From Lytechinus pictus (taxonomy: Eukaryota): a stretch of DNA of 64,000 nt. The stretch covers positions 7,318,001 through 7,382,000 of the forward strand of contig NC_087251.1 in NCBI RefSeq assembly GCF_037042905.1, given 5' to 3'. This document shows, one piece after another, positions 7,151 to 37,062 of this stretch; position 1 is the first letter of the stretch, and each line of letters opens with the position of its first letter. The notes under the pieces were generated by a model, which was given only the letters and a program-made list of their open reading frames with translations, was not told the DNA's origin and ran no database searches. A program made the position numbers and the translations under genes.

Positions 7151-8501
7151 GGTAAATTATAAGCAAATTTTTGTAATGAAGATATACCTGTCTCACTAAA
7201 CAAACAATGCGAGCACGAAGCACGAGCTGATTTTTTTGTTTATATTGACCCAAACAGGGACATTTTGATATCTATTTTTTAGTAGTACATGAAGAGCATA
7301 CATATCTCACCATTGTCATCTAATGCGAATGCCTGCTGATTTTGTTAGAATTACACTTCCTGTATTCATTGTAATAATGGACATTATCTATCTCCCACTA
7401 ATTAAATATTGTGAGCGCGAAGCGTGAGCTGGAAATTTTTGAAATTCAGACCTGAAGAGGAGCATTCTAAGGCTTGTTTGTAAGAATTCACTAAGACCAT
7501 TCGTATTTCACTAACCAAAATGATGCGAGCGCAAAGGAAAAGCGACTTCTTTTAAGGACTGTTTTAGAAATTCATGAAGAGCAGACATAATTTATCTCAC
7601 CAATTCACTAAGCACGGAATGGAAATGTTTTACATTCAGACATTAAAAGAGGGTAATCACTTTAATAAGTCATGAAAAAGAAGCATATGTCACTACATAT
7701 GAAACAATGATAAGTCGAAGTGCGAGGAAATATATTTGGTGTTTTCCTATATTGAATTGAAAACGGCATGTTTCAATACAACAGGATTATATATCTCATT
7801 ATAGAGACAATGCAAGCACCAGGAATGATGAACACAAGCAAAAATTATAAACAAATTATATGTTTCATATGAAACATATATTTCTTATGTAATATTATGC
7901 ATATAGTGCATGCTTAGGAGTTTAATATACCATAATATAAGTGTCCACAGATTTCAAATTCTCGCGTGTGTTTTTATAATATAAGCGCACAAGACTGAGA
8001 AATTCGAAATTTATGTATACAAGTGATATTGTATATTGAACGTCAATTAGCATATGTGTTATATAAAGATGAGAACACTTCTGACTTGAAATTCTGAACT
8101 TACCTGCGAGCGAGCATTTCTTTGATCCAATGATAGTCACCGTCATCTGGCTATGTGCATCTTAATGAGAACATACAGGTGTTGTGATAATAGCAATTAC
8201 CATGACTACCAAGACGTCCCCGGTCTTGATGTCTGTTGGCTGATGCCCTGTTTCAGTATATGCCTTTTAATTAACATGCTTTATAGTTAGAGCAGGAAAT
8301 TCGAGAAGCAGACAATTCTTGTGATATAAAATATGATATTCGATCCGCTCACACATAAGGATCTCAGCCCCCCCCCCCCTTTTTTTTTACACGATTTATA
8401 CACGTTATGTGCAACGTATTATGATCCGGAATATTATGAAGAAACTTGGGAACATAGAATTTAAAATGGTAAACATTCCCGTAAACAATCAACCACAAAA
8501 C

Positions 8502-9255
8502 TATGGAAGCTTAAAAGTGCCATCCTTTATGTTCAAAATCATCTCGTAATGTCTACATCTTTTAGGGAAAAGGATAAGATGACGAGATCTCGGATCTCGT
8601 CATGCTACTTCCCGTGGGAGAGATGAAAAGATGACAAGATCTTGCATCTCGTCATGTCTACTTTTTTTTTAGAAGAGATGATCAGATGGCAAGATCTTGG
8701 ATCTCGTAATGTCTACATCATTAAGAAGAGATGATCAGATGGCAAGATCTTGAATCTCGTATTGTCTACATCTTTTAGAAGAGATAATCAGATGGCAAGA
8801 TCTTGGATCCGAGATCTTGCCATCTGATCCTCTCTCCCACAAGATGTAGACATGACGAGATCCAAGATCTTGCCATCTGATCATCTCTTCTAAAAGATAA
8901 TAATAATAATAACTGGATTTATAAAGCGCTTTTTGCCTGAGGATACAAAGTGCTGCTATTATTACACCGGCTTTAGCTCGAGCTACCATCACCGGCGCTC
9001 AGTGTATTCAAGAAAATAATCCTGCCGGGTACACATTCACCTCACGTGGGTCGAGTGCAGCACATTGTGGATAAATGTAGATAAATGAAGATGTAGATAA
9101 TGACGAGATCCAAGATCTTGTCATCTGATCAGCTCTTCTAAAAGATGTAGACATGACGAGATCCGAGATCTCGTCATCTTATCCTTTTCCCTCGGAGATG
9201 TAGACGTGACGAGATGATTATTTGAATACCTAGGTGGCACTTTTAAGCTTCCATA
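8502..9255. mobile_element. Palindromic MITE with internal ~53-bp tandem repeats
   Basis: TIRs TATGGAAGCTTAAAAGTGCCA ... TGGCACTTTTAAGCTTCCATA. Repeats of GAGATGATCAGATGGCAAGATCTTGGATCTCGTCATGTCTACATC invert at ~8810. Absent from the paralogous site at ~31375. Confidence 0.75.
8897..9077 (-). mobile_element. 5'-truncated SINE, same family as 21361-21645
   Basis: Reverse complement of the SINE body and (TAT)n tail, inserted inside the 8502-9255 MITE. Confidence 0.75.
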
Positions 9256-9587
9256 CAAATTACTGCCTCTATATTAAAATATGCAGACATTTCCCCAAAT
9301 AAAACACGTGGTACTAATATTTCCAATGTTAACAAGAACTGCACATCGATTTTCAATGATTTCAGTGATTTATTATTCGCGTATTTTGTGAAATATATAT
9401 CAATCGAAAACTGCTTCAGCAGGCCCTCCTCACGGTGACGATAGGAACCAAAATAGGAACTAAAATATGAAGAGAATGGTATTCAGATGACAATAACAAT
9501 TGCCTGCTAGTGAGTCTATTATAATCGATGAATGTCCATCTCTTCATAGGTCCATGGTATTAGGTAAACAGCATTATAACACGTCAG

Positions 9588-23621: not shown

Positions 23622-24076
23622 TACCGTGTTTACACGCTGCATCGGCTCGCGGTTTAGAACCGCGAGCCGATGCAGGTTCGGCTTTTTTTCTACGTGTAAA
23701 CGCGATTAACTTGCATCGGCTCTCGGTGCAGAATCGGCAGTTTTGCACCACCGAAGAAGTAGGTTTTAGAACCGCGAGCCGATGCAGAATCGGCTTTTTT
23801 TAACGTGTAAACAGAAAGTCGATTCTGCATCGGAAATAATTGGCGCGCATTTAAGTTACTTTACCATTGTGACGTACTTGTAAGCGCGCGGAACCAGCGT
23901 TGTCTTAATTATGACGTATATTGTTGGTGCGCGGATCATTTCAGGTTTTTGCCACGCGAGCTGATTCTGCATCGGGAGCTGTGACAGCGTGTAAACGCGG
24001 GCAAGATAAACCAAAAAGCCGATTCTGCATCGGCTATTGGTTCTGAACCAAAAGCCGATGCACGTGTAAACACGGT
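23622..24076. mobile_element. Harbinger-type MITE (TACCGTGTTTACAC termini) nested in another MITE
   Basis: TACCGTGTTTACACG ... CGTGTAAACACGGTA, with internal GCATCGGCTCGCGGTT/AACCGCGAGCCGATGC palindromes. It interrupts a copy of the 21860 family. Confidence 0.65.
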
Positions 24077-24943
24077 AAGATCGCGTGTTGCATATTCATG
24101 TACGCGTCGGCATTTAAGTGCGACATATTCCCCGGGGAAAATACAAAGGTACATATTTTGTATCGTTTCTGCATGCAAAGTCAATACACGCACCTGCGCA
24201 CAGAGACCAAGCAAAATACAAATAATATACCTATCCTTCCCTATATTCAGAAAATATAGGGTAATACAAATATGTAAATGACAACGGTTTCCGATGGATT
24301 GCGAATTTGAAAGAACCTCACTGGTCCCTGAACAGCATTTTACACCAAATGCGCGCGTAACATCTAAATTGATTGATCAGTTCATTTAGCGATTGATCGC
24401 TATTCTTTGTGTTATGGAGCCCAGCTCAGATGTCAGATACGGGTACTAATCAAATTTAAGCTATATATTTAATGTGAATTAATTGCAATGCACAGTCAAA
24501 CACGTTCCTTTTGACAATGTGTGCTGGGGATCTATTCGGTCTGTTTTTCTAATTCCTCGTTGCCATGGTTACGATTTAACGAAAGCAAAATTAGTTGACT
24601 ATTTAAAAAAAATGAGTCTGTCGAAACTGATGGTAATCGGTGTAATGTGCATGGTTGCTATTTACAAAAACCATTTACATGTGATTTGCTGTCAACCAAA
24701 GTGATACATCAAAGTTCATAATAAATGGGGATAGTGTCGTGTCGTAATGATAGATACGTGTTTTACTAATAACATCATAACATGTAATACATTTTAGATT
24801 TTTACAGAAAATGTGTTTTAAAACAAAATATTACAAAAGAGCTTACTGGAATTTTTGTTAAATACAAAATGTGTAGTAATCCGTCAGATTTCATACAATA
24901 TTTGGCGCGCTTGCTTATTACAAGTCAGAATGGACTTCGTTTA

Positions 24944-25156
24944 TACCTAGTTCCAACTGTCACGAATTGCGCCACGCTTCAAACGACGTACTTGATCGTG
25001 GAGTAATCGTAGTGATCTTATCGGATCATATTAAATCAGCCGTGGTAATCATGTAGATCGTAGAAAGGTTCTGAATGGTTCAACAATTTTAGCGATCAGT
25101 TACGAAAGTCCAATCGTGGCGATCGTAAAGGATCGCCCGACAGTGGGACCGAGGTA
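24944..25156. mobile_element. Harbinger-type MITE (TTA TSD)
   Basis: TTA|TACCTAGTTCCAACTGTC ... GACAGTGGGACCGAGGTA|TTA. Confidence 0.6.
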
Positions 25157-25704
25157 TTACAATACCACTTTGTGTTCCGATTCTTTACCATCACTAAGTA
25201 TCTTTATAAGTTGTTACCATAATTAATCGTTGTCATCTTTATCATCATTCTTCATCATTGTTGCTGGTTAATACCAAACTAAAACCACCAAGCAGAGCAC
25301 ACAATGCTCTAAGTTTGATGAAAATGTCAGAGGCATAATGAGGAAGAAATGACAGAGGAAAAGTGGGTCTTTCACCTCCACCAATTTACCTCTGTTTTAC
25401 ATATTTTACCTCTGGTAGTTCTATCTCTTACAGTGATTTTTTTTCCTTGCACCCAGACCATCTTCAATAAACTAGTAAAGACGAGGACACCTGACTATGA
25501 TAGGCCCCTAAATAATAAAGTAGCTGTAGCAACCTAGAAACATTTAAATCGAAATTGATAAATTGATGAAACTCAAGACATAGCAGAAATGTTGGAGTGC
25601 AGATGAAGAATGTGTTCAAAATACAACAAAATATAGTTTCACAACCAAAACGGTCCAAGTGTGCAGAATACCATCACAGTGATTGGTACAGTTTTTGTTA
25701 TTCT

Positions 25705-26967
25705 TCATGAGGGTCCAACCCTCGGACGGCGGCAGCGTTGTTGACATCCAAAGTTAATCATATTCCGTCTCAATGTTGGGTTAGTAAGGCCATAGAGGAT
25801 AGGATTGAGTGCAGAGTTACCCCACAGTAGACCATTTACCACCTCCCATGTTGTCTCAGAGAAGCAATCATCTTCGCCGCACATCGCCTGTAGGATGCTC
25901 ACTATCTCGTATGGAAGCCAGCACGCAAGAAACGTCCCTACCAATATGGACAACGTCAAAGCAGCTTTCTTGTGCCTGGCGAATAAACGCTTGTGACGGC
26001 AATATGTCGCTATACGTTGAGTCCCTGGATTATGATTCGTCTGGAGACCAGAGCACGAAGGACCATTAACTTCAGGGAGTGGACGGGACTGATTCCTGCG
26101 ACTGCCTAATACTTCTACCAAAGGTTTTACCCATCGATCTGTGTGTACATTGGATACAGAAGGAAGATCAGAATGATCTGCATGCGACATACCTGGCATC
26201 TGACTATGTGATTGATCATTGCGTGGATCGGTTGAAGGCAGACCAAGGTTGGATTTGTATCTTCGCAGATTCTGTGATCGCTGATGAATCTGATAATATA
26301 CAGATATATTCAATAATACGATGATTGGTAGTGGAATTCCAAACTCGAAAATAAGAATACCGATTGTAAAAGGCAATAAGTACACAATTTCTAGTTCGCA
26401 TTCATCTTGAAAATCCACTAGGTTTGCATCTGTCATTGCGAATGCGATACAGACATAGACGGTGATGCTAAATGCCCAGCATACCAGGGTGATGATGGTG
26501 ACTCTCTTACGAGTCCACACTGTTCGATATCGAGTCTTCTGATACATTAATAAAAACCGATCAAGACTTATTAGCATGATTGTTATCGTTGACATATAGC
26601 TTACAGTGTAATCAAGAATTGACCAAAGTCTGCAAACAACCTCACCAAACATCCAGGAGTCTTCGGCTACCCAATGCAGATTGATGGTCAATATCATGAC
26701 ACCAATTAGGAAGTCAGATATTGACAGACTGAAGATGAGTGTATTGGTTGGGACGGCACGTACCTGAGAATGGCGGCAGTAGGCTAAGATCACTAGCAGG
26801 TTACCTATGACAGTGATAACAATAACCAAACTATAACCCCATATTAATGGTATTCGATTAAGACTGGGTCCGGAGTCGTAGTCATCCTCTAGAAGAGTAG
26901 ATTGATTAGTGTTCACGATTAACGATCCTTCACTTACCACATCCATACTTTCAGTTATCACCTCCAT
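25705..26967 (-). CDS. Intronless class A aminergic GPCR, histamine H3/H4 (muscarinic-related) receptor-like, 420 aa
   Basis: Seven hydrophobic segments with GNxLV (TM1), LSISDFLIG (TM2), WxFG-xxxC, LWSILDY (D3.32), ISLDRF, TM4 W, EFGIP (E5.46), FLACWLPY and LLWGNSALNPILY. Confidence 0.93.
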   Translation of the reverse strand: MEVITESMDVVSEGSLIVNTNQSTLLEDDYDSGPSLNRIPLIWGYSLVIVITVIGNLLVILAYCRHSQVRAVPTNTLIFSLSISDFLIGVMILTINLHWVAEDSWMFGEVVCRLWSILDYTVSYMSTITIMLISLDRFLLMYQKTRYRTVWTRKRVTIITLVCWAFSITVYVCIAFAMTDANLVDFQDECELEIVYLLPFTIGILIFEFGIPLPIIVLLNISVYYQIHQRSQNLRRYKSNLGLPSTDPRNDQSHSQMPGMSHADHSDLPSVSNVHTDRWVKPLVEVLGSRRNQSRPLPEVNGPSCSGLQTNHNPGTQRIATYCRHKRLFARHKKAALTLSILVGTFLACWLPYEIVSILQAMCGEDDCFSETTWEVVNGLLWGNSALNPILYGLTNPTLRRNMINFGCQQRCRRPRVGPS

Positions 26968-27669
26968 GTCATAAAATCAGTTTCATTTCTTTAACGTTAG
27001 GACAACTAAAAAAGGTTCAGAATCGGTTGGATGCAGGAATCACATAAGAATATAAAGTCATGAGTGGGAATTGCCTTCTCCGAGCTTTTTTCGCCCTATA
27101 TAATGCGCCCCTATGCTTTCGGTATTTCAAACTTCATGGAAAGGAATAAAGCTTCTAAAGATATTTTTTGAAATACAGGTCGTCGTTCACTCACCTCAAC
27201 ATCATAACATTTTCCTTGACTCTTGACATATCCGAGCAGTGTGTAATGCAAGGAAAATTTGTGATTCGCGTCAAACTTACAAGCCCCGAGATGGTTAGTC
27301 ACTTATAATTCTTCAGTACTTCATCCAAAAGATGTAGGCCTATAATTATGTTAAGCCGATTAAGACACGAGGTACGTTACTTCAAATGGTTTTAGTGATT
27401 GTCCACAAGGAGGCAGTAAATTGTTTTTAAATAATGCACTTAAATGACGACTGTAGTGGACGGTTAGACTGTGAATTAGCGGTAAACGTTGGAGATAAAC
27501 GCCAGCTACAGTGTTCATGCTACCGTGGAAAGAAGTCGAATGAAGAATCTTTGCCGAGGCATCCAAACCTCTCTTCTCAGTCGAAGTCGTGTGCAAAAAA
27601 AAAAACACCTTAAGCTTTATAAAAAATAATGGTTGTATCGTTTCATGGTTGCATTTACCCGACGACGTA

Positions 27670-28430
27670 AGACCACCGTGTAAACATCTCTACATTGTTA
27701 GTACACAATGTGCCCACAGTGTGAACATCTCCACACTGTTATTACACAGTGTGTCCACAGTGTAAACATCTCTAAACTGTTAGTATACAGTGTGAAAATC
27801 TCCACACTGTTAGTACACATTGTATCCACAGTGTGAACATCTCAACGCCGTTAGTACACAGTATGTCCTACACTGATATTACACAGTGTATCCATAGTGT
27901 GAACATCATGAACTGATAGTATACAGTGTGAACATCCCCACACTGTTACTACACAATGTGCCCAGTATGAACATCCCTACACTGTTAGTACACAATGTGC
28001 CCACAGTGTGAACATCCCAAGCTGTTAGTTCACAGTGTAAACATATACACACTGTTAGTTCACAGTGTGAGCATATCCACACTGTTAGTTCACATTTTAT
28101 CAACAGTGTGAATATTTCCACACTGTTACTACACAGTGTGTCCAGTATGAACATCCCTACACTGTTAGTACACAATGTGCCCACAGTGTGAACATCCCAA
28201 GCTGTTAGTTCACAGTGTGTCCACAGTGTGAACATCCCTGCACTGATGGTACACAGGGTATCCACAGTGTGAACATCCCCACACTTTTAGTACAGTGTAT
28301 CCACAGTGTGAACATCCCCACACTGTTATTACACAATGTGCCCACAGTGTGAACATCCCAAGCTGTTAGTTCACAGTGTGTACACAGTGTGAACATCCCC
28401 ACACTTTTAGTACATAGTGTGTCCGCAGTG
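27670..28430. repeat. ~40-bp minisatellite (CACAGTGTGAACATCCCACACTGTTAGTACACAATGTGCC)
   Basis: Roughly 20 degenerate tandem units are visible. The ORFs across it are repetitive translations. Confidence 0.9.
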
Positions 28431-28508
28431 TGATTATTATTAATATAGTGAATCAGCCATTCAATGAACACAATGTATTAGTATATATATATACAGTATA
28501 TATATATA

Positions 28509-29068
28509 TGAAGAGTTTAGTTTTGCAAGTAAACTGAAATTAATCCAATCTCTTTTGATTAAAAAAGTGATTTTTCTTCGCCACTTTCATTCACGTTTTC
28601 ATTTGAATTTCAACTTTTCTTTGGTATCATCTTATAGAGCTACTAAAAAGTCTATACATTGAGACATAAAAATCATTGGTTGCAAAAGGGGTTAGGTCCA
28701 CTCCAAGAAAATCATTTTTTTTATACTTCCATATTGCAATATTCTTATGCGAAACTGAATTTCCACAATACTCTACCATGAGAACATAATTGGGTATAAA
28801 ATAAATCTACCTGTCTTCATATTTTTTAAGATATTCTTTTCCAAAAAAAAATTCTGAGTGGACCTTTTGCAACTAAACTGAAATGGACCTAACCCCTTTT
28901 GAAAAAAAAAGTGATTTTTCTTTATGATTTTTCTTTGCCATTTTAGTTCACTTTTTAATAGGAATCTCAACTTTTCTTTGGTATCATCTGATAGAGCTAC
29001 TAAAAGTCTATACATTGAGACATAAAAATCAAATTTGATGAAAAATTGTACCTTTTGCAAGTGAGCTC

Positions 29069-29072
<4 letters not shown>
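28509..29072. mobile_element. Non-autonomous TIR element inserted in a (TA)n microsatellite
   Basis: (TA)n-TGAAGAG...TTGCAA ... TTGCAA...CTCTTCA-(TA)n, with an internal ~130-bp direct repeat (~28560-28675 and ~28905-29030). Confidence 0.6.
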
Positions 29073-29116
<44 letters not shown>

Positions 29117-29164
29117 GAGATGAGGCGAGGCCAACTCAACAGATGACGCAGGACACCATTATTT

Positions 29165-29204
29165 GCTTTAGCTTTCGTCTTTTAATTGAGACTTCGTCAG
29201 AAGC
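29165..29204 (-). ncRNA. Minimal type I hammerhead ribozyme motif
   Basis: Minus strand reads GCTT CTGACGA A GTC-TCAATTAAAA-GAC GAAA GCT A AAGC: core boxes, stem II GTC/GAC, palindromic AGCT stem III and stem I GCTT/AAGC. Confidence 0.75.
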
Positions 29205-30108
29205 GTCTGAAAAATATAAGGTGATACAACATCCAAGTTTGTTTTGCACATTAATGAATTATCACCAAGTTGAATATATTCCATAATGAAAAATTAATGA
29301 ATGAACAGATAAATAAATTAATGAATAATAAATAATTAATTCAATTAAAATAATAATGATATAAATGAAAAAGACATACCTGTAATTACAGACTATTGTG
29401 ATAGTTAAGTATGACCGTATCCTATCTCGTTCTTTAGGAAAGTGGCAAAAATTGCAAAAAGAAAACATTGGTTGCTAGGTGGTGAAAGCGCAAAACTGAT
29501 GTTACAAATGTGACCATGGTGTCACTAATTAAATGATTAAATGATCTTTTTATACTTATTGTTGTGTATTTGTTAGGTGCTTTCTAGATGACCCAAGCTC
29601 GAGAAGTGAGACTTTTGGTCATTACGCGAATTATCAACAATTTTATTTATAATCTTTACTCGATTTGATCTCAAAATTTATATCGTTTCATAGAGATTTA
29701 ATTACTATGCTTGTAAGAACCAATGTTTCGTCATCATCCTCCAGCTTACGATATCTAATATCATGAATATTCATACTCATTGTGACATAAATTTTATGCG
29801 CATTACCAATGCGCTTTGCGCTTTCACCACCTATATAGCAACCAATGTTTTCTTTTTGCAATTTTTGCCCCTTTCCTAAAGAACGAGATAGGATACGGTC
29901 ATACTTAACTATCACAATAGTCTGTAATTACAGGTATGTCTTTTTCATTTATATCATTATTATTTTAATTGAATTAATTATTTATTATTCATTAATTTAT
30001 TTATCTGTTCATTCATTAATTTTTCATTATGGAATATATTCAACTTGGTGATAATTCATTAATGTGCAAAACAAACTTGGATGTTGTATCTCCTTATATT
30101 TTTCAGAC

Positions 30109-30148
30109 GCTTCTGACGAAGTCTCAATTAAAAGACGAAAGCTAAAGC
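30109..30148 (+). ncRNA. Minimal type I hammerhead ribozyme motif
   Basis: GCTT CTGACGA A GTC-TCAATTAAAA-GAC GAAA GCT A AAGC, with predicted cleavage after CUA. Confidence 0.75.
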
Positions 30149-30251
30149 AAATAATGGTGTCCTGCGTCATCTGTTGAGTTGGCCTCGCCTCATCTCATTA
30201 TGTTTAATATTCACAACTCAACAGCGATTGGTAGAAGTAAACTTATCATCA

Positions 30252-30303
<52 letters not shown>

Positions 30304-30363
30304 TTTATATGTATATAATGAGATGAGGGTCAACTCAAAAGATGACGCAGGAGACCATTCTTA

Positions 30364-30399
30364 GCTTTAGCTTTCATCTATTAAGACTTCGTCAGAAGC
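30364..30399 (-). ncRNA. Minimal hammerhead ribozyme motif
   Basis: Minus strand reads GCTT CTGACGA A GTC-TTAATA-GAT GAAA GCT A AAGC (G-U pair in stem II). Confidence 0.65.
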
Positions 30400-30753
30400 G
30401 GTCTGAAAAATACAGGCGGATACAATATATATCCAAGTTTGTCTTATAATCACAAATTAATGCACATCAATGAATTATTCTCAAGATGAATATATTCCAT
30501 AATCTCATTAGACAGATGAATGAATAAATATGTTAAATGTTTTCATTTTGCAATTTGTGACTATTTCACTGAGAACGAGATACATGTAGGCATCCTATTT
30601 TACTGCCACAATAGTCTGTATTTACAGGTAAGTCCTCTCTATTTATATAATTATTCTTTTAATGCAATTAATTAATTTATATTTATTTATCAATTTATTT
30701 ATTCATTCATTCATCTGTCTAATGAGATTATTTAATTAGAAAGTCAAAAAGGG

Positions 30754-30792
30754 GCCTAAGCTTTCGATCCTAGCAGAATCTTCGTCGGAGGC
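30754..30792 (-). ncRNA. Hammerhead ribozyme motif of a third family, core U4>C variant
   Basis: Minus strand reads GCCT CCGACGA A GATTCT-GCT-AGGATC GAAA GCT T AGGC. Stem I covaries (GCCT/AGGC) and stem II is 6 bp. Confidence 0.6.
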
Positions 30793-30907
30793 AAAATGAC
30801 CAAAAAAAAAATTATTTAATATATTCAACTTGTTAATAATTCATTGATGTGTATTAATTTGAGATAAGCCAAACTTTGATTTTGTATCCCCTTGCATTTT
30901 TCAGACC

Positions 30908-30940
30908 GCTTCTGACGAAGTCCTAGACGAAAACTAAAGC
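30908..30940 (+). ncRNA. Hammerhead ribozyme motif, stem III palindrome mutated
   Basis: GCTT CTGACGA A GTC-CTA-GAC GAAA ACT A AAGC. Confidence 0.55.
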
Positions 30941-30947
30941 TATAAAG

Positions 30948-31692
30948 CCATGGACCTATGAAGAGATGGACGATTAATCCGAGCATTTCTTTGATCCAAT
31001 GATAGTAACCGTCACCTGGTTATGTGCATCTAAATAAGAACATACATGTGTTGTGACAATAGGTATTACCAAGACTACTAAGACATATTTGATCACTTAA
31101 AGACAGATCAGTTTCCCGGTCTTTGTTTTGTTGGGTGATACCCTGTTTCAGCATTTGCCTTTTCAATCAACATGCTTCATATTTGGAGCAGCAAACCTGA
31201 GAAGGAGACTATTTCTTTAATATGAAATATTCGATCCGGACACTTCCGGACGCACGTAAGGACCTCGATAACATTGAGAGATACAAGTCATGATCTATAG
31301 ACGTTATGTGCCACGTATATCTGAAATATTATGGAGAAAATTGGGGAAATTGAATTTTAAATGGTTAACAATCAATGACAAATTTTCCTCTACATTAAAA
31401 TATGCAGATATTTCCCAAATAAAACACATGGAACTAAGATTACCAAAGGTAAACAAGTCATCGATTTTACATGAATTAAGTGATTCGGTGTTACCTCCAT
31501 GGTGTTATCAATTGCGCATACAATCTGTGAAATAAAGTTCCAATCACGAACTGCTTCAGGCCTTTCTCGCGGTACTAACGATCATAGGACCAAAGTAGAC
31601 AAGTATGAAGACAATGTTATTCATATGACAATAGCAGTCATCTGTTAATGAATTCATTATCTATTCTAGGCGACGAATGTCCATCTCTTCAG
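30948..31692. mobile_element. TIR element (CCATGGACCTATGAAGAGATGGAC), paralog of 8110-9557
   Basis: Left TIR is intact and a partial right TIR GTCCATCTCTTCA is at ~31679-31691. Colinear with 8110-9557 once nested insertions are removed. Confidence 0.65.
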
Positions 31693-31809
31693 GGTATAAG
31701 TGCTCCATTATTTCTACCCAGCTTAGGGCGTACGTATTGGACAATGGAAGTAATTTGTTCCATATTTTGTGCTGACGGTAAATTGATCCTTAATGAGGAT
31801 AGTGGTGTT

Positions 31810-33392
31810 CAGTGGCGTATCCGGCGGGGGGCAGGGGGGGCAAGCTGCCCCCCTGGAGGAGCTCACCGGGAAAAAAAACGGGAAAAAGAAAAAAGGGGGA
31901 AGAAAGGGAAAGGGAAAGGAAAGAAAAAAAGAGGAAAGGGGGAAAGGGAAAGGGAAAAGAAAACTAAGAAAGAAAAGGAAAACGGGAAAAGGAAGGAAAA
32001 AAGAACAAGTCAGATAAAACAATTCTCCCCGATACAAATACATAGCATGATCAGTAACACAGGGAAATTAATTAAAGATGACAAAAAGGCAAACAAAAGC
32101 GGGAAATGAAGGCAGAATGGAATTAGCCAAAATCTAAATTGGAAAATAAAGAAAAGGGACAAGATAACGTACACTACCGGGCTGCCGAGGATTGAAGATA
32201 ACGAGCGGGAAGAAATATGGATGGTATACATAGCATAATGTCGTACATGTCATATGAAAGTCTATCATAATCTTGCTAAATCTCTAAAGCTACCGGGGGC
32301 TCTGTCCAAGAGTCAAGACCCCGTGCAGTGGGGGCTCTTCATCTGTAACCTTTAATGGGTTCTACATGTATAACGGGTCCCTATATGGACCCTTCCTGCA
32401 TTAAGCTTTGCGTTGAAGCACTGGTGTACGGGGGAGGGGTGGTTCCGCAGCCAAGGGGAATTAAAAGAAAATAAAGGAGGCAGCGAAATGACATGAATGA
32501 AAAAAATATATGACATGATATTTGCTATGATGTAAAAATCTATCACATAATTAGAATTTCATTTTAACAGGCCATTTTTCTTTCTGGCTCGCTTCGCTCG
32601 CTGGCGACTTTTTACAAATTTTCCCACATTTTCTATATGGTGTGCCCCCTCACAATATTTGGATGATTACGATACACAACTGCGCTGAATTTATGTGTTG
32701 TGTGAAAGCTATATAAATATACACGCAATTTGATTAAAATAAGTGGACATCTGTAAGGTTAAAATGGCTTTAATATCAAGAGGTTCCGGGGCTCTGCCCT
32801 GGACCCCACCCATAAAGCACTGTTACATGTATATGGATGAGTTTGGACAATGGCCTCCCAAAATTCTACAACCAAGCAAAAAAAAATTAGGAAAGAAAGG
32901 GAAGTGTTTTATATTTTTCTGAATATCACGTTAAATTCTATCTTCATGTTAGATTCTCATGAAAAGGTGATTTTTTTATCTCGCTCGCTTCGCTCACACG
33001 GGACCTATAGTAAGCTACTTCTTGCCACAAGCGCCATACTCGGCCCCCTCGAGCATATAGAGCTTCGCCCTGATGCTCACAATTATAACAAAAATCCTGT
33101 TCACCGTGGCGTACAAAAGAAGAGAGAAAAAAGGAAAGAGAGGAGGGTGAAATATGATATCATCTTTTTAACATCATGTCAAAATCTATCACAAAATTGG
33201 ATTTTTGCAATAAAAATGTCAAAAATGTTTGCTCGCTCGCATTTACATATATATATTTGCCCGATACGCTATATCGCCCCCTCAACATTTTTGCCTTATG
33301 ACGCCATTGCCTGTTCCATTGATATGACCGGGAAATTTTTGGCTCTTGCCCCCCCCCCCCCCCCCTGGCCACTGACCCCTGTTACTCCGCTG
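31810..33392. mobile_element. hAT-type non-autonomous (composite) element
   Basis: CAGTGGCGTA ... TACTCCGCTG termini with 8-bp flanks GTGGTGTT/GTAGTGTT. Purine-rich interior. Confidence 0.55.
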
Positions 33393-33414
33393 GTAGTGTT
33401 GGAAGGGTCACTGA

Positions 33415-33534
33415 CAGGGGCCGCGGAATGGTTTTCAAAGTGGGTGGGGGGCTGACCATGCAAAAAATCACAATCATATGGTCATTTTTACGTTTTTGTA
33501 CACGGTTTTGGAAAAAGTCCCCCCCCCCCCCCTG
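33415..33534. mobile_element. Short hAT-like MITE with 5-bp TSD
   Basis: ACTGA|CAGGGGCCGCGG ... CCCCTG|ACTGA. Confidence 0.75.
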
Positions 33535-33659
33535 ACTGATATGACAAACTGTTTTTCAAACTGCTTTTCAAACTGTTTTTCAAATTTATGCCGGTGCCGT
33601 CACGGGACGGTGACACCGCTTTAAATCCGCTATAAATGCATTCACATAGCAGCAGAAAA

Positions 33660-33875
33660 GTTATCCCAGCACAGACCCGGGATAAATTTGCATGTACCCA
33701 TTGACACTGCAGTAAGTGATTTTTATTACCTCCATAACAAAACACATGTAGGTTTGTGACCCCATGAGTGACCCGACTCTGATACACCGGAAATACTTGA
33801 GGGCGGGGAATCGAAGCCATGCACGTCCTTCAGATTGAAAGACGAGAATCATAACCACTAGACCACGACGCCCCC
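33660..33875 (-). mobile_element. tRNA-derived SINE (diverged)
   Basis: Minus strand begins GGGGGCGTCGTGGTCTAGTGG and has a B-box-like GCTTCGATTCC and the core AATGGGTAC. Confidence 0.6.
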
Positions 33876-34207
33876 ATGTACATTATAGTAAACATATCGC
33901 GAGTGGTTTATTCCGGTGTTGTAGCGGTGTGCCTTCACACTGAAGGAACACCGCGACAGTCGTAGGGTTGTCCCGCTGCTATATATGGCTTGCCTTGCGA
34001 GTTTGTTGCGGTGTAATTGCGAGGAAAATTTATCCCGAGTAGTTTATTGTGGGTCCGAGAATTCACACTGCAGGCAACACCGCTACAGTCTCGGGACAGT
34101 CCCGTTACTGTAGCGGTGTTTGTGGCCAGAGTGAAGAGGGTATGGGATAGCTTACGACCCGGGCTTACGATATGCGGGATGTGAATGCTTGGTTAGTGAA
34201 TGAAATA

Positions 34208-35374
34208 TTCCGAACTTTTCGTATTTACTACGGAGAAACCCTCGACAACGCATCAATTCCTTCGAAAATGCTAGTTAAATCACAATGGAGAGCTGATCTG
34301 AGACACTTTTAAGTCTTATCTTGATAAATTGAGAGTATTGCAGAAAAGGGCGATATGACTTATAACAAATTCTAATTATAGACATCCAAGTACTCCGTTA
34401 TTTCTTCGTCTGAAAATGCTACCACTAAGTGCACTTGTGTCGTTCAATTGTGCATTGTTCATGTTCAAACTACAATCGATGCCCCAAGAATGTACTTTAA
34501 AAAAATTATTTCTTCAGAATTCACAAATACATAGTTATAATACACGTCAAAAGGATCTTATTCGTCAGCCATTTGCGAGAACAAATGTCACTCTGACCTC
34601 CTTTCATATATCATGTATTAAAGAGTGGAACAATTTACCTGTTGATATAAAAAATAGTAAAACTCTTTTCATGATCAAAAGATTATCCAAAACTTACTTT
34701 CTTGACAGATTATGATTATTTTCCTTCAATATGTATTTTAAGTTGATGTATTTGCATTTAACATGTTTAAGTTGATGACCTACTCAGAATTTATGTTTAG
34801 TATGTGCATATGTGGGTGAATGTGGTTGTGTGTGGGTGTGTGTGTGTGTGTGTGTCTGTAACAGTTTCCATTCTATTTTTAGCATCTTAACCTTATATAT
34901 ATATTTTTTGTCTCTCCTTTTGTATCTTGTAGATTAGTATATATCCTATGTTGTATGTTAATAATCATAAGTATTTCAGGGCCCTACTCACAAGCTTTGC
35001 TTTTAAAGGGGTCCTAAAACCAATTCATCTATGCTATAATCTAATTGATGTATGTTTATGTACTCATTTACATTGTATGTATATCCATTTTGATTATGAT
35101 GTGATGTTTTTTTGGTTTTGAATAAATAAACTTGAACTTAAACTTGACTTTTGTCGAAAGTTGGTGGACGGGGGACAGCATCGGAATCTCTTGACTCTGG
35201 ACAACGACATATTTGCCTTTATTCGTCCGGTGCAAATCTTCGAATGATCTGCTGTCCCAGTCCACCAACTTTCGACAAAAGCCTCATTGTAATTTTAATT
35301 GCATTTTCAAAGGAATCGATGCGTTGTAAAGAGTTTCCCCCGTAGTAAATGCGAAAACTACCTATATATCGGAA
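34208..35374. mobile_element. Palindromic MITE split by a LINE 3' fragment
   Basis: Outer arms TTTTCGTATTTACTACGG...CAACGCATC and GATGCGTTG...CCGTAGTAAATGCGAAAA. An uninterrupted relative is at ~63035-63300. Confidence 0.6.
34310..35148 (+). mobile_element. 3' fragment of a CR1/L2-group LINE
   Basis: LQKRAI..IT, PLF, HSYNTR and WNNLP motifs. 3' UTR has (TG)n, AATAAA and a (CTTGAA)n tail. Confidence 0.85.
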
Positions 35375-35800
35375 GAAGAGAGGTGATCTGTCATGCATCC
35401 TATCGTATGCTCTCTATTTCTTTCCTGTCTACTCCATCCCAGTCCCAATCTCCCTTTCCTTCTCCCCCTCTCCTTCCCCCCTCTCCCCTCTATTTTTATT
35501 TTTCGCCCCCTCTTCATCTCTCCATATCAACATATTCCTCTCTCTCATAATTTGTCCTCTTTATTTTGATTGAGAATTCCTGTCTATAGAAGTAGGCTGT
35601 AAAAAGTGATCAGCGGACAGAGGCCTACTCTTCTGTAACATGAATGGATGGCGACTGGCGTTATTATTTTTTTAAGTCGTTTTCAACATAAGTACTGAGA
35701 GTGAAATGACATAAATTATAGGGGATACATTTGCTATATAAATTCAATGAATTTAATATTCGCAAAGAAAGTCACCAAAAATTGTTTTAATTACAACAGT

Positions 35801-35835
<35 letters not shown>

Positions 35836-37062
35836 TAGTAGTAATAGTATGCAAATGAGGGGACTGATGACGTCACTTACTTACAATTTCTTGTGTATTT
35901 CATTACATGAATATGAAATATTCTCATTTTTCTTATTCTCATAGTCTTTGTGACAAATGATTCTGTATAATTTGAAAAATCCATAAATGACATTTGTTAA
36001 AAAAATAAGGGAGAATTTTTTTTTAATGAATACAAAATGAACTAACGGTAAGTGTTGATAGAACATTGAAAATGCGGTAGTTAATCCCGCGCCATTCTCT
36101 TTTATATACGGCGTGACTTTATTCAACGACCGTGTTAAAAGTAAACCAGTAGAATGTCGCTCAATATGAGAAAGGAGCACTGAACTGGAATCATCGATAA
36201 TTTCTACAACGTGAACATTATGTCGTCTAACGATGTGGAAATCTAATGGAAAAGTGCTGCACGCAGTTAGAAAAAAAAAAGCTTCAGCAACGAGGCCACT
36301 TAGAACGAGTTAAGCCCTATTTCTTTTTTTTCGAAAAAAAAGCAAGCAATCATTTTTACATTTTATATTTCACATCGAGTATGAGTCAAAAGCCGAAAGG
36401 AACTGCTGATACAAATGCGTTACTACACCCCTGGATTTTCTGATGATATCAACATTATTGTGTTGATTGTAAACCAAGCCTAAACGTGAAGGGAGTGCAA
36501 AAATATTGAAATGTATTCTGAAGCGATCAATTTTGGTTAACGATATAGGTTGAAATTAAAATCTCATAATCACACAATGCTGATAAGAATAAGATTCGTT
36601 TGTAAAGGTATTCGATAACTTGTCACACTAACAAGACAAGAAGCATGCACTCTGAACATTATTTTATGCAATCAATGTTTCAAGGTGTGAAGGAACAAAC
36701 ACTCGCTATGTTATGTAAGGTGTATGATGTGAGAGATATTGTATATTATTACCCAGATATTTCGAAGATTACGAATGGTATAAGCTCAACAAAAAAATTA
36801 AAACAACACTGGTTAGGGTAGCGGGATTTACTTCCTCCATAGGTTTTACTTAACAAATTTCCTTATATCTAAATGATTGAATCGGGGTTTTTTAAACTTC
36901 ATAATATTATGTAAATTATTAATTTCCTATTTCTTAAATACAATTAACAGAAAGGAAGGGTATGAAATTCTGCATTGAAAATAATTATTGTTTATTTGTG
37001 GATGCAATTTAACTTTTAACAATTTAAACAAAACGAAGTGGTTTGAATCAATTAATACTGAA

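Follow-up and report, generated by a model that had tools for sequence, protein, structure and literature searches.

Five hammerhead ribozyme motifs stand within 1.8 kb of non-coding inverted repeats in the genome of the sea urchin Lytechinus pictus, and the question is what kind of mobile element left them there. The window analysed here is the forward strand of NC_087251.1 from position 7,318,001 to 7,382,000 (64 kb), and all positions below count from its first nucleotide. The GC content is about 35% for the whole window and 31% for the hammerhead-bearing non-coding repeats. An initial annotation had read the cluster as a retrozyme system linked to Penelope-like elements (PLEs). We prefer, with a probability of roughly 70%, to read the stretch as dead, 5'-truncated copies of PLE ends (pseudo-LTRs), which are arranged as head-to-head pairs in TA repeats and carry a minimal hammerhead directly behind a retained intron. 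Published work is cited for the sections of each source that we consulted.

The window also contains a rhodopsin-family GPCR, encoded by a single-exon ORF of 423 aa (25705-26976, minus strand; PF00001, E 2.9e-49), and several exons resembling organic solute transporter alpha (OST-alpha; 36309-61277, minus strand), apparently from more than one paralogue, one of which is a PF03619 match. Debris of LINE-type reverse transcriptase (RT) is present elsewhere. Just upstream of the GPCR ORF there is an array of units of about 41 bp and 30 bp (27641-28431), in which inverted ACACTGT/ACAGTGT motifs are abundant. An AT-rich repeat occurs twice in direct orientation, about 350 bp apart, between TA tracts (28521-29031), immediately to the left of the first hammerhead-bearing insertion.

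All five motifs were found where the initial annotation had placed them, and judged by sequence pattern they are real hammerhead motifs. Two minimal type I motifs of family A are intact, at 29165-29204 on the minus strand (predicted cut after 29169) and at 30109-30148 on the plus strand; for the latter the cut expected after CUA falls at the correct predicted position, A30144. A minimal motif of subfamily B (30364-30399, minus strand) is intact except for a G-U pair closing helix II. The remaining two are a family C motif (30754-30792, minus strand) and a degenerate subfamily B motif (30908-30940, plus strand). A CUGACGA core and a palindromic AGCU stem III had been ascribed to all five, and each was found in four: the core of the family C motif is CCGACGA, and helix III of the 30908 motif is the non-palindromic AACU, with a predicted duplex energy of +3.1 kcal/mol versus -4.5 for AGCU.

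A strict type I descriptor, run over the whole 64 kb, returned four of the five motifs and no other match, while 100 block-wise dinucleotide shuffles of the 64 kb gave a mean of 0.06 matches (maximum 1), or 0.01 when a palindromic helix III was required. A relaxed descriptor recovered the fifth motif together with one weak unrelated match at 31139-31166. The published consensus of minimal type I hammerheads (U-rich flank, CUGANGAH, G10.1-C11.1, GAAA-palindrome-UH; PMC4209133, suppl. fig. S3) is matched in full by three of the five. Such minimal PLE hammerheads are described as weak and as cleaving only as dimers (PMC4209133; the dimer study is Lunse et al., RNA Biol, as cited in PMC6765202), and the match to the consensus supports the earlier assignment to this minimal, dimer-type class. 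In the Rfam search of 24000-36000 none of the 30 listed matches (E<=10) was to a hammerhead family; the listed miRNA matches came from inverted and TA repeats, with scores far below gathering thresholds. None of the six stretches that were folded had a significant z-score (0.19 to -1.11), an outcome to be expected of minimal hammerheads; the case rests on motif and context. The A and B motifs fold as minimal ones, and an extended helix I (by 5 bp) is predicted for the C motif only, whose core is altered.

The motifs had been divided into three diverged families with covarying stems. There are two independent families: A and B are subfamilies 77-82% alike, and C is a third motif type with a flank that cannot be aligned to either. 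We compared the pairing of the five motifs and one outside motif (L002, described below) in a table of five distinct rows and eight pairs (40 cells), in which helix positions pair in 95% of cells. Changes on both sides occur in 4 of the 8 pairs (5 cells), every one of which involves the C or the L002 motif, and between A and B no pair is changed on both sides. Covariation was thus not shown among true copies; the two-sided changes represent conservation of the motif between unrelated families.

Although insertion A (29115-30254) resembles a MITE, it consists of two copies of the same end, fused head to head. The left part of its target is a (TA)n tract at 29072-29114, and a second tract with a degenerate right end (30255-30317) separates it from insertion B. 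The first copy is inverted, 5'-truncated and about 380 nt long (29115-29494, minus strand), and ends directly in (TA)n without a tail. The second is a longer 5'-truncated copy (29519-30201, plus strand), followed at this end only by an optional tail of 53 nt (30202-30254, plus strand), which is family sequence and not flank. What appears to be a spacer (29519-29814) is the upstream part of this longer copy. At the junction stands an inverted filler of 18 nt (29497-29514) adjoining a GTGAC/GTCAC hairpin; its reverse complement is 17/18 identical to the sequence that two contigs of a public sequencing run (X3) carry upstream of 29519, so the junction holds a small fold-back filler. A perfect 11-bp stem (30171-30181 with 30214-30224, plus strand), reached by 5 of 5000 mononucleotide shuffles, joins the arm end to the tail, and the short terminus at 30201 lies inside its loop.

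The arms of insertion A (about 380-385 nt) are 99% complementary, differing by two substitutions and one 4-nt indel; the outer ends read TA/ATGAG...CTCAT/TA, and there is no coding capacity. These features would suit a DNA transposon of the MITE or foldback kind, with terminal inverted repeats of 385 bp and a TA target duplication, in which a hammerhead was captured by chance. The public sequencing runs speak against it. Four of the 24 listed runs were aligned at 85% likeness to 29470-30250, a stretch within insertion A, and 289 contigs of X3 aligned. Their summed depth was 12-20 at 29470-29523 and 66-305 across the remaining spacer; in the arm it was 430-1644 over the first half and 8269 at 30172-30198, and in the tail 2003. 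Such summed depth does not measure copy number, and at 85% likeness related subfamilies inflate it near the conserved end. A transposon with fixed inverted ends should give a flat 2:1 step, and is therefore unlikely given a depth that climbs toward the 3' end and varies about 25-fold within the spacer and about 20-fold within the arm. X3 also contains an additional strand-switch joint (29973/30172), so that three different inversion points are seen in A, B and this copy. Moreover, intron-less forms exist in the runs. Fixed terminal inverted repeats with a uniform layout are contradicted by the coverage gradient, the variable junctions and the one-sided tail, and we regard a DNA transposon as very improbable.

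The same runs bear on the 3' end of the family. In contigs of X3 (30157-30247) and of a second run, X1 (30172-30250), the arm end is continuous with the tail, while other contigs, from X1 and a third run, X2, pass from 30201 straight into TA. This means that the A family has two 3' termini. As to expression, the public record lists no RNA data set that carries the sequence, and a raw RNA run gave four reads in the 6% sampled, none more than 95% alike, which is no evidence for or against it. Between 29655 and 29945 the copy in the window differs from the aligned contigs at about nine fixed sites, among them several changes of C to A or to T. Insertion A therefore comes from a minor sub-lineage or from another population than those runs.

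Insertion B (30318-30941) is a head-to-head pair older than A, with a different junction and no spacer. It consists of an inverted 5'-truncated copy of about 215 nt (30318-30535, minus strand) and a longer copy (30536-30941, plus strand), which lost its 3' end beside a repeat starting near 30948. That repeat has short inverted ends (30948-31692) and starts exactly where insertion B breaks off; its longer relative at 8111-9557 has foldback sequence nested inside. The association with (TA)n that had been proposed is supported for A and B, both of which sit in TA tracts, where a target duplication is unreadable for either. A third insertion, C (74 bp; 30737-30810, minus strand), belongs to the unrelated family and contains the hammerhead and little else. 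It is nested in the intron of B and flanked by a 10-bp target-site duplication, ATTATTTAAT (30727-30736 on the left and 30811-30820 on the right, plus strand), for which the sister arm of B provides the empty site as control. The motifs had been described as facing outward on both strands; the one at 30754 departs from this description, being a separate nested insertion and not an end.

The layout of these insertions matches what is reported for PLEs: inverted 5'-truncated copies, a 30-40 bp tail and TA bias (PMC8557442), and head-to-head junction palindromes with 8-10 bp duplications (PMC3846280). At this locus, 5' truncation is variable (coverage gradient, differing copy lengths), head-to-head inverted 5'-truncated copies occur in A, B and the one X3 joint, an intron is retained in a genomic copy (29934-30106), and the targets are TA tracts for A and B and a site with a 10-bp duplication for C. 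The 53-nt tail of A is longer than usual for a PLE and counts against this reading. The link to PLEs made in the initial annotation is supported by the inverted truncated copies, the optional tail, the retained intron and the consensus motifs, and it is well supported that A/B works like a PLE end.

The motifs themselves resemble those of metazoan PLE pseudo-LTRs (Cervera and de la Pena 2014, PMC4209133), with the same type I topology, 4-bp helix I, extra base after A9, palindromic 4-nt helix III, U-rich 5' flank and pairs on opposite strands; the sea-urchin examples there share the CUGACGAA core. Opposite-strand pairs 100-700 bp apart were already ascribed to truncated PLEs in that work. The A/B family is absent from the two Strongylocentrotus rows of its suppl. 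fig. S3. The helix III AGCU of A/B is that of the Schistosoma 3, Oikopleura and Marsupenaeus rows, with helix II short here (3-4 bp). With Neptune-type endonuclease-positive PLEs (PMC8557442), A/B shares the (TA)n bias and hammerhead-bearing ends; it differs in that no ORF was linked to it. Poseidon of Anolis (PAc; PMC11167929) likewise has an optional tail and AT-rich targets, and its two 3' termini also lie on a stem-loop that follows the hammerhead. The PAc ORF starts within the hammerhead, where no open ATG frame starts here, and the termini of A/B are 53 nt apart.

Animal non-LTR retrozymes are likewise non-coding, of low GC, equipped with type I hammerheads and probably PLE-dependent (PMC7229834; preprint 10.64898/2026.07.22.740005), and the 2026 preprint argues that they derive from PLE pseudo-LTRs. 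The 31% GC repeats studied here agree with a system in which hammerheads cut monomers that circularise and reinsert. However, retrozymes of animals are described as repeats of 150-450 bp in head-to-tail tandem, with circular RNAs and with canonical hammerheads, in which loop 1 contacts loop 2 (PMC7229834; the preprint; review PMC6765202), whereas A/B is head-to-head, variably 5'-truncated, minimal and intron-bearing. The locus has no head-to-tail unit, no unit-length go-back joint was present among the five joints listed, and same-strand neighbours belong to different subfamilies or are damaged. In addition, the copies retain 53-110 nt beyond the cut site on its downstream side, which a monomer template cleaved at that site would have lacked. 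The retrozyme system originally put forward is therefore not supported, and it is the least probable of the readings considered.

The earlier observation that no RT or GIY-YIG ORF is evident was borne out, as no ORF of at least 100 aa overlaps 29113-30945. The tail frame (ATG at 30200, 18 open codons) gave no protein match at E<=10 with three candidates, a weak test covering one of three frames. The exact family pattern had no match in metagenome contigs or in GTDB contigs, which is also a weak test, and one search of the PMC8557442 supplement did not find the A/B motif. Region and contig searches yielded no RT/GIY-YIG ORF tied to A/B or C. One explanation is that A/B derives from a PLE but is non-autonomous: it would be a pseudo-LTR with promoter, intron, hammerhead and tail, which never had its own ORF and was moved in trans. 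The family sequence of at least 730 nt (29519-30254) without an ORF of 100 aa and the tail frame without a protein match are in line with it, and pseudo-LTRs are described as sufficient for mobilisation in trans (PMC3846280) and non-autonomous derivatives as known (PMC8557442). But the splice sites are conserved in both subfamilies, which is most easily understood if a coding transcript had this intron in its 5' leader (PMC2377424). Copies without an ORF are normal for autonomous families too, owing to 5' truncation, and coverage keeps dropping upstream with no defined 5' end. We consider this explanation rather unlikely.

A relaxed pattern search returned eight matches in metagenome contigs and none in viral contigs. 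Four matches (L001, L003, L007 and L008) were chance matches in prokaryotic coding DNA and were dropped. The other four (L002 and L004-L006), from one organism, have an AGCU hammerhead directly behind TTTTCAG. Downstream of L002 there is an 884-aa ORF with an RT domain (PF00078, E 2.5e-7), in which GxKF, DKG, CxxxxCxxC (a Neptune-like Cys linker) and GIY-YIG-like motifs could be recognized by eye. L005 and L006 mark hammerhead-ORF-RT units 7.2 kb apart. At about 242,700-256,000 of their contig, identical hammerhead ends enclose long ORFs and PLE-type RTs that differ from each other and are separated by blocks of simple repeats, a composite layout that we take to be Terminon-like. L002-L006 have no DNA similarity to the A/B family and are analogues only.

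The detail that A/B adds to known PLE ends concerns its intron, which stops two bases short of the ribozyme and is joined out in public data. The GT-AG intron of A is 173 nt long (29934-30106, plus strand; CAG/GTATGT ... TTTTTCAG), is retained in the A copy and has its mirror copy at 29207-29379 on the minus strand, while the longer B copy has one at 30628-30904 (plus strand; CAG/GTAAGT ... TTTTTCAG). The splice acceptor is preserved in all four arms, including the short B arm, from which the donor is absent, and the donor in all three arms long enough to contain it. One joint in X1 skips 173 nt with GT..AG ends and corresponds to the spliced form of 29934-30106. The identical 173-nt join occurs in X3 with one substituted base, and five further X3 contigs carry exon sequence before 30104. 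Each of the two joints comes from one contig, with a short side of 21 or 24 nt, and the RNA or DNA labels of X1 and X3 are guesses. Since CAG stands at both intron ends, a deletion in DNA is possible instead of splicing.

A 5'-leader intron within the pseudo-LTR is described for Penelope (PMC2377424), and in Drosophila virilis the intron end maps to helix I of the hammerhead (PMC4209133). Both systems thus have a pseudo-LTR intron abutting helix I and retained in copies, together with inverted copies and a tail. The differences are an intron of 173 nt here versus 75 nt, a helix I that is wholly exonic here, TA targets here, and a joined intron form seen here in a run guessed to be DNA. The Nasonia, Saccoglossus and Cotesia rows of PMC4209133 suppl. 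fig. S3 also have, by eye, a pyrimidine tract and AG shortly before helix I. The U-rich flank of published minimal hammerheads may often be a splice acceptor.

We suppose that these insertions were made by a PLE protein that combines RT and GIY-YIG endonuclease and whose gene lies elsewhere; as PLE work suggests, it is probably of the Neptune type, which targets TA. The endonuclease would cut both strands of a TA tract, and reverse transcription would start inside the RNA at two nearby stem-loop sites, here 30201 and 30254, giving one end without a tail and one with it; for PAc, two RT start sites on a stem-loop create the tail and both strands of AT-rich DNA are cleaved (PMC11167929). Both cDNAs would stop early and be joined head to head with short fold-back filler, from an RNA template that would be mostly unspliced. 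In the parent element the pseudo-LTR would act as promoter and 5' leader, spliced for translation, and its hammerhead would cleave slowly, as an AGCU dimer or with protein help; the protein-assisted hammerhead was dispensable for insertion in vitro (PMC11167929). The local A, B and C copies are probably inert: in the predicted fold of a read-through transcript of A the two arms pair with each other and bury the hammerhead, and of the three motifs outside A two carry damage.

A tentative idea, which we hold to be on the unlikely side, is that splicing switches the hammerhead. The UCAG of the intron would pair with the CUGA of the core, so that unspliced RNA would keep the ribozyme unfolded and survive as the usual template, while spliced RNA would fold the ribozyme; both forms would be copied into DNA, including a rare spliced sense template that would yield intron-less copies. 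Of 24 sequence windows for A, 22 showed more predicted helix I pairing once the intron was spliced out, and two showed less. In B, for which one arm's exon was combined with the other arm's hammerhead, pairing rose in 11 of 15, with three ties and one lower. The intron-joined forms in X3 (one with the junction substitution), a run whose DNA status is guessed, are a further basis of the idea. For D. virilis it had been suggested earlier that the hammerhead defined by the spliced form differs from that of the unspliced one (PMC4209133). In the literature listings searched, including those on sea urchins, we found nothing on intron-less PLE copies or splice-gated PLE hammerheads; supplements of published work may list the A/B family.

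Minimal hammerheads in truncated, inverted PLE ends are already known and are abundant in animals, including sea urchins. In the A/B family a retained intron abutting the ribozyme and a stem-loop with two 3' termini occur together, possibly alongside DNA copies that lack the intron. If true, splice-gating would explain why PLEs keep their introns, and together with intron-less copies it would settle whether the sense or the antisense RNA is the template in vivo. The family thus lends itself to testing two questions raised in the PLE literature: why introns persist through retrotransposition, and what purpose the weak hammerhead serves.
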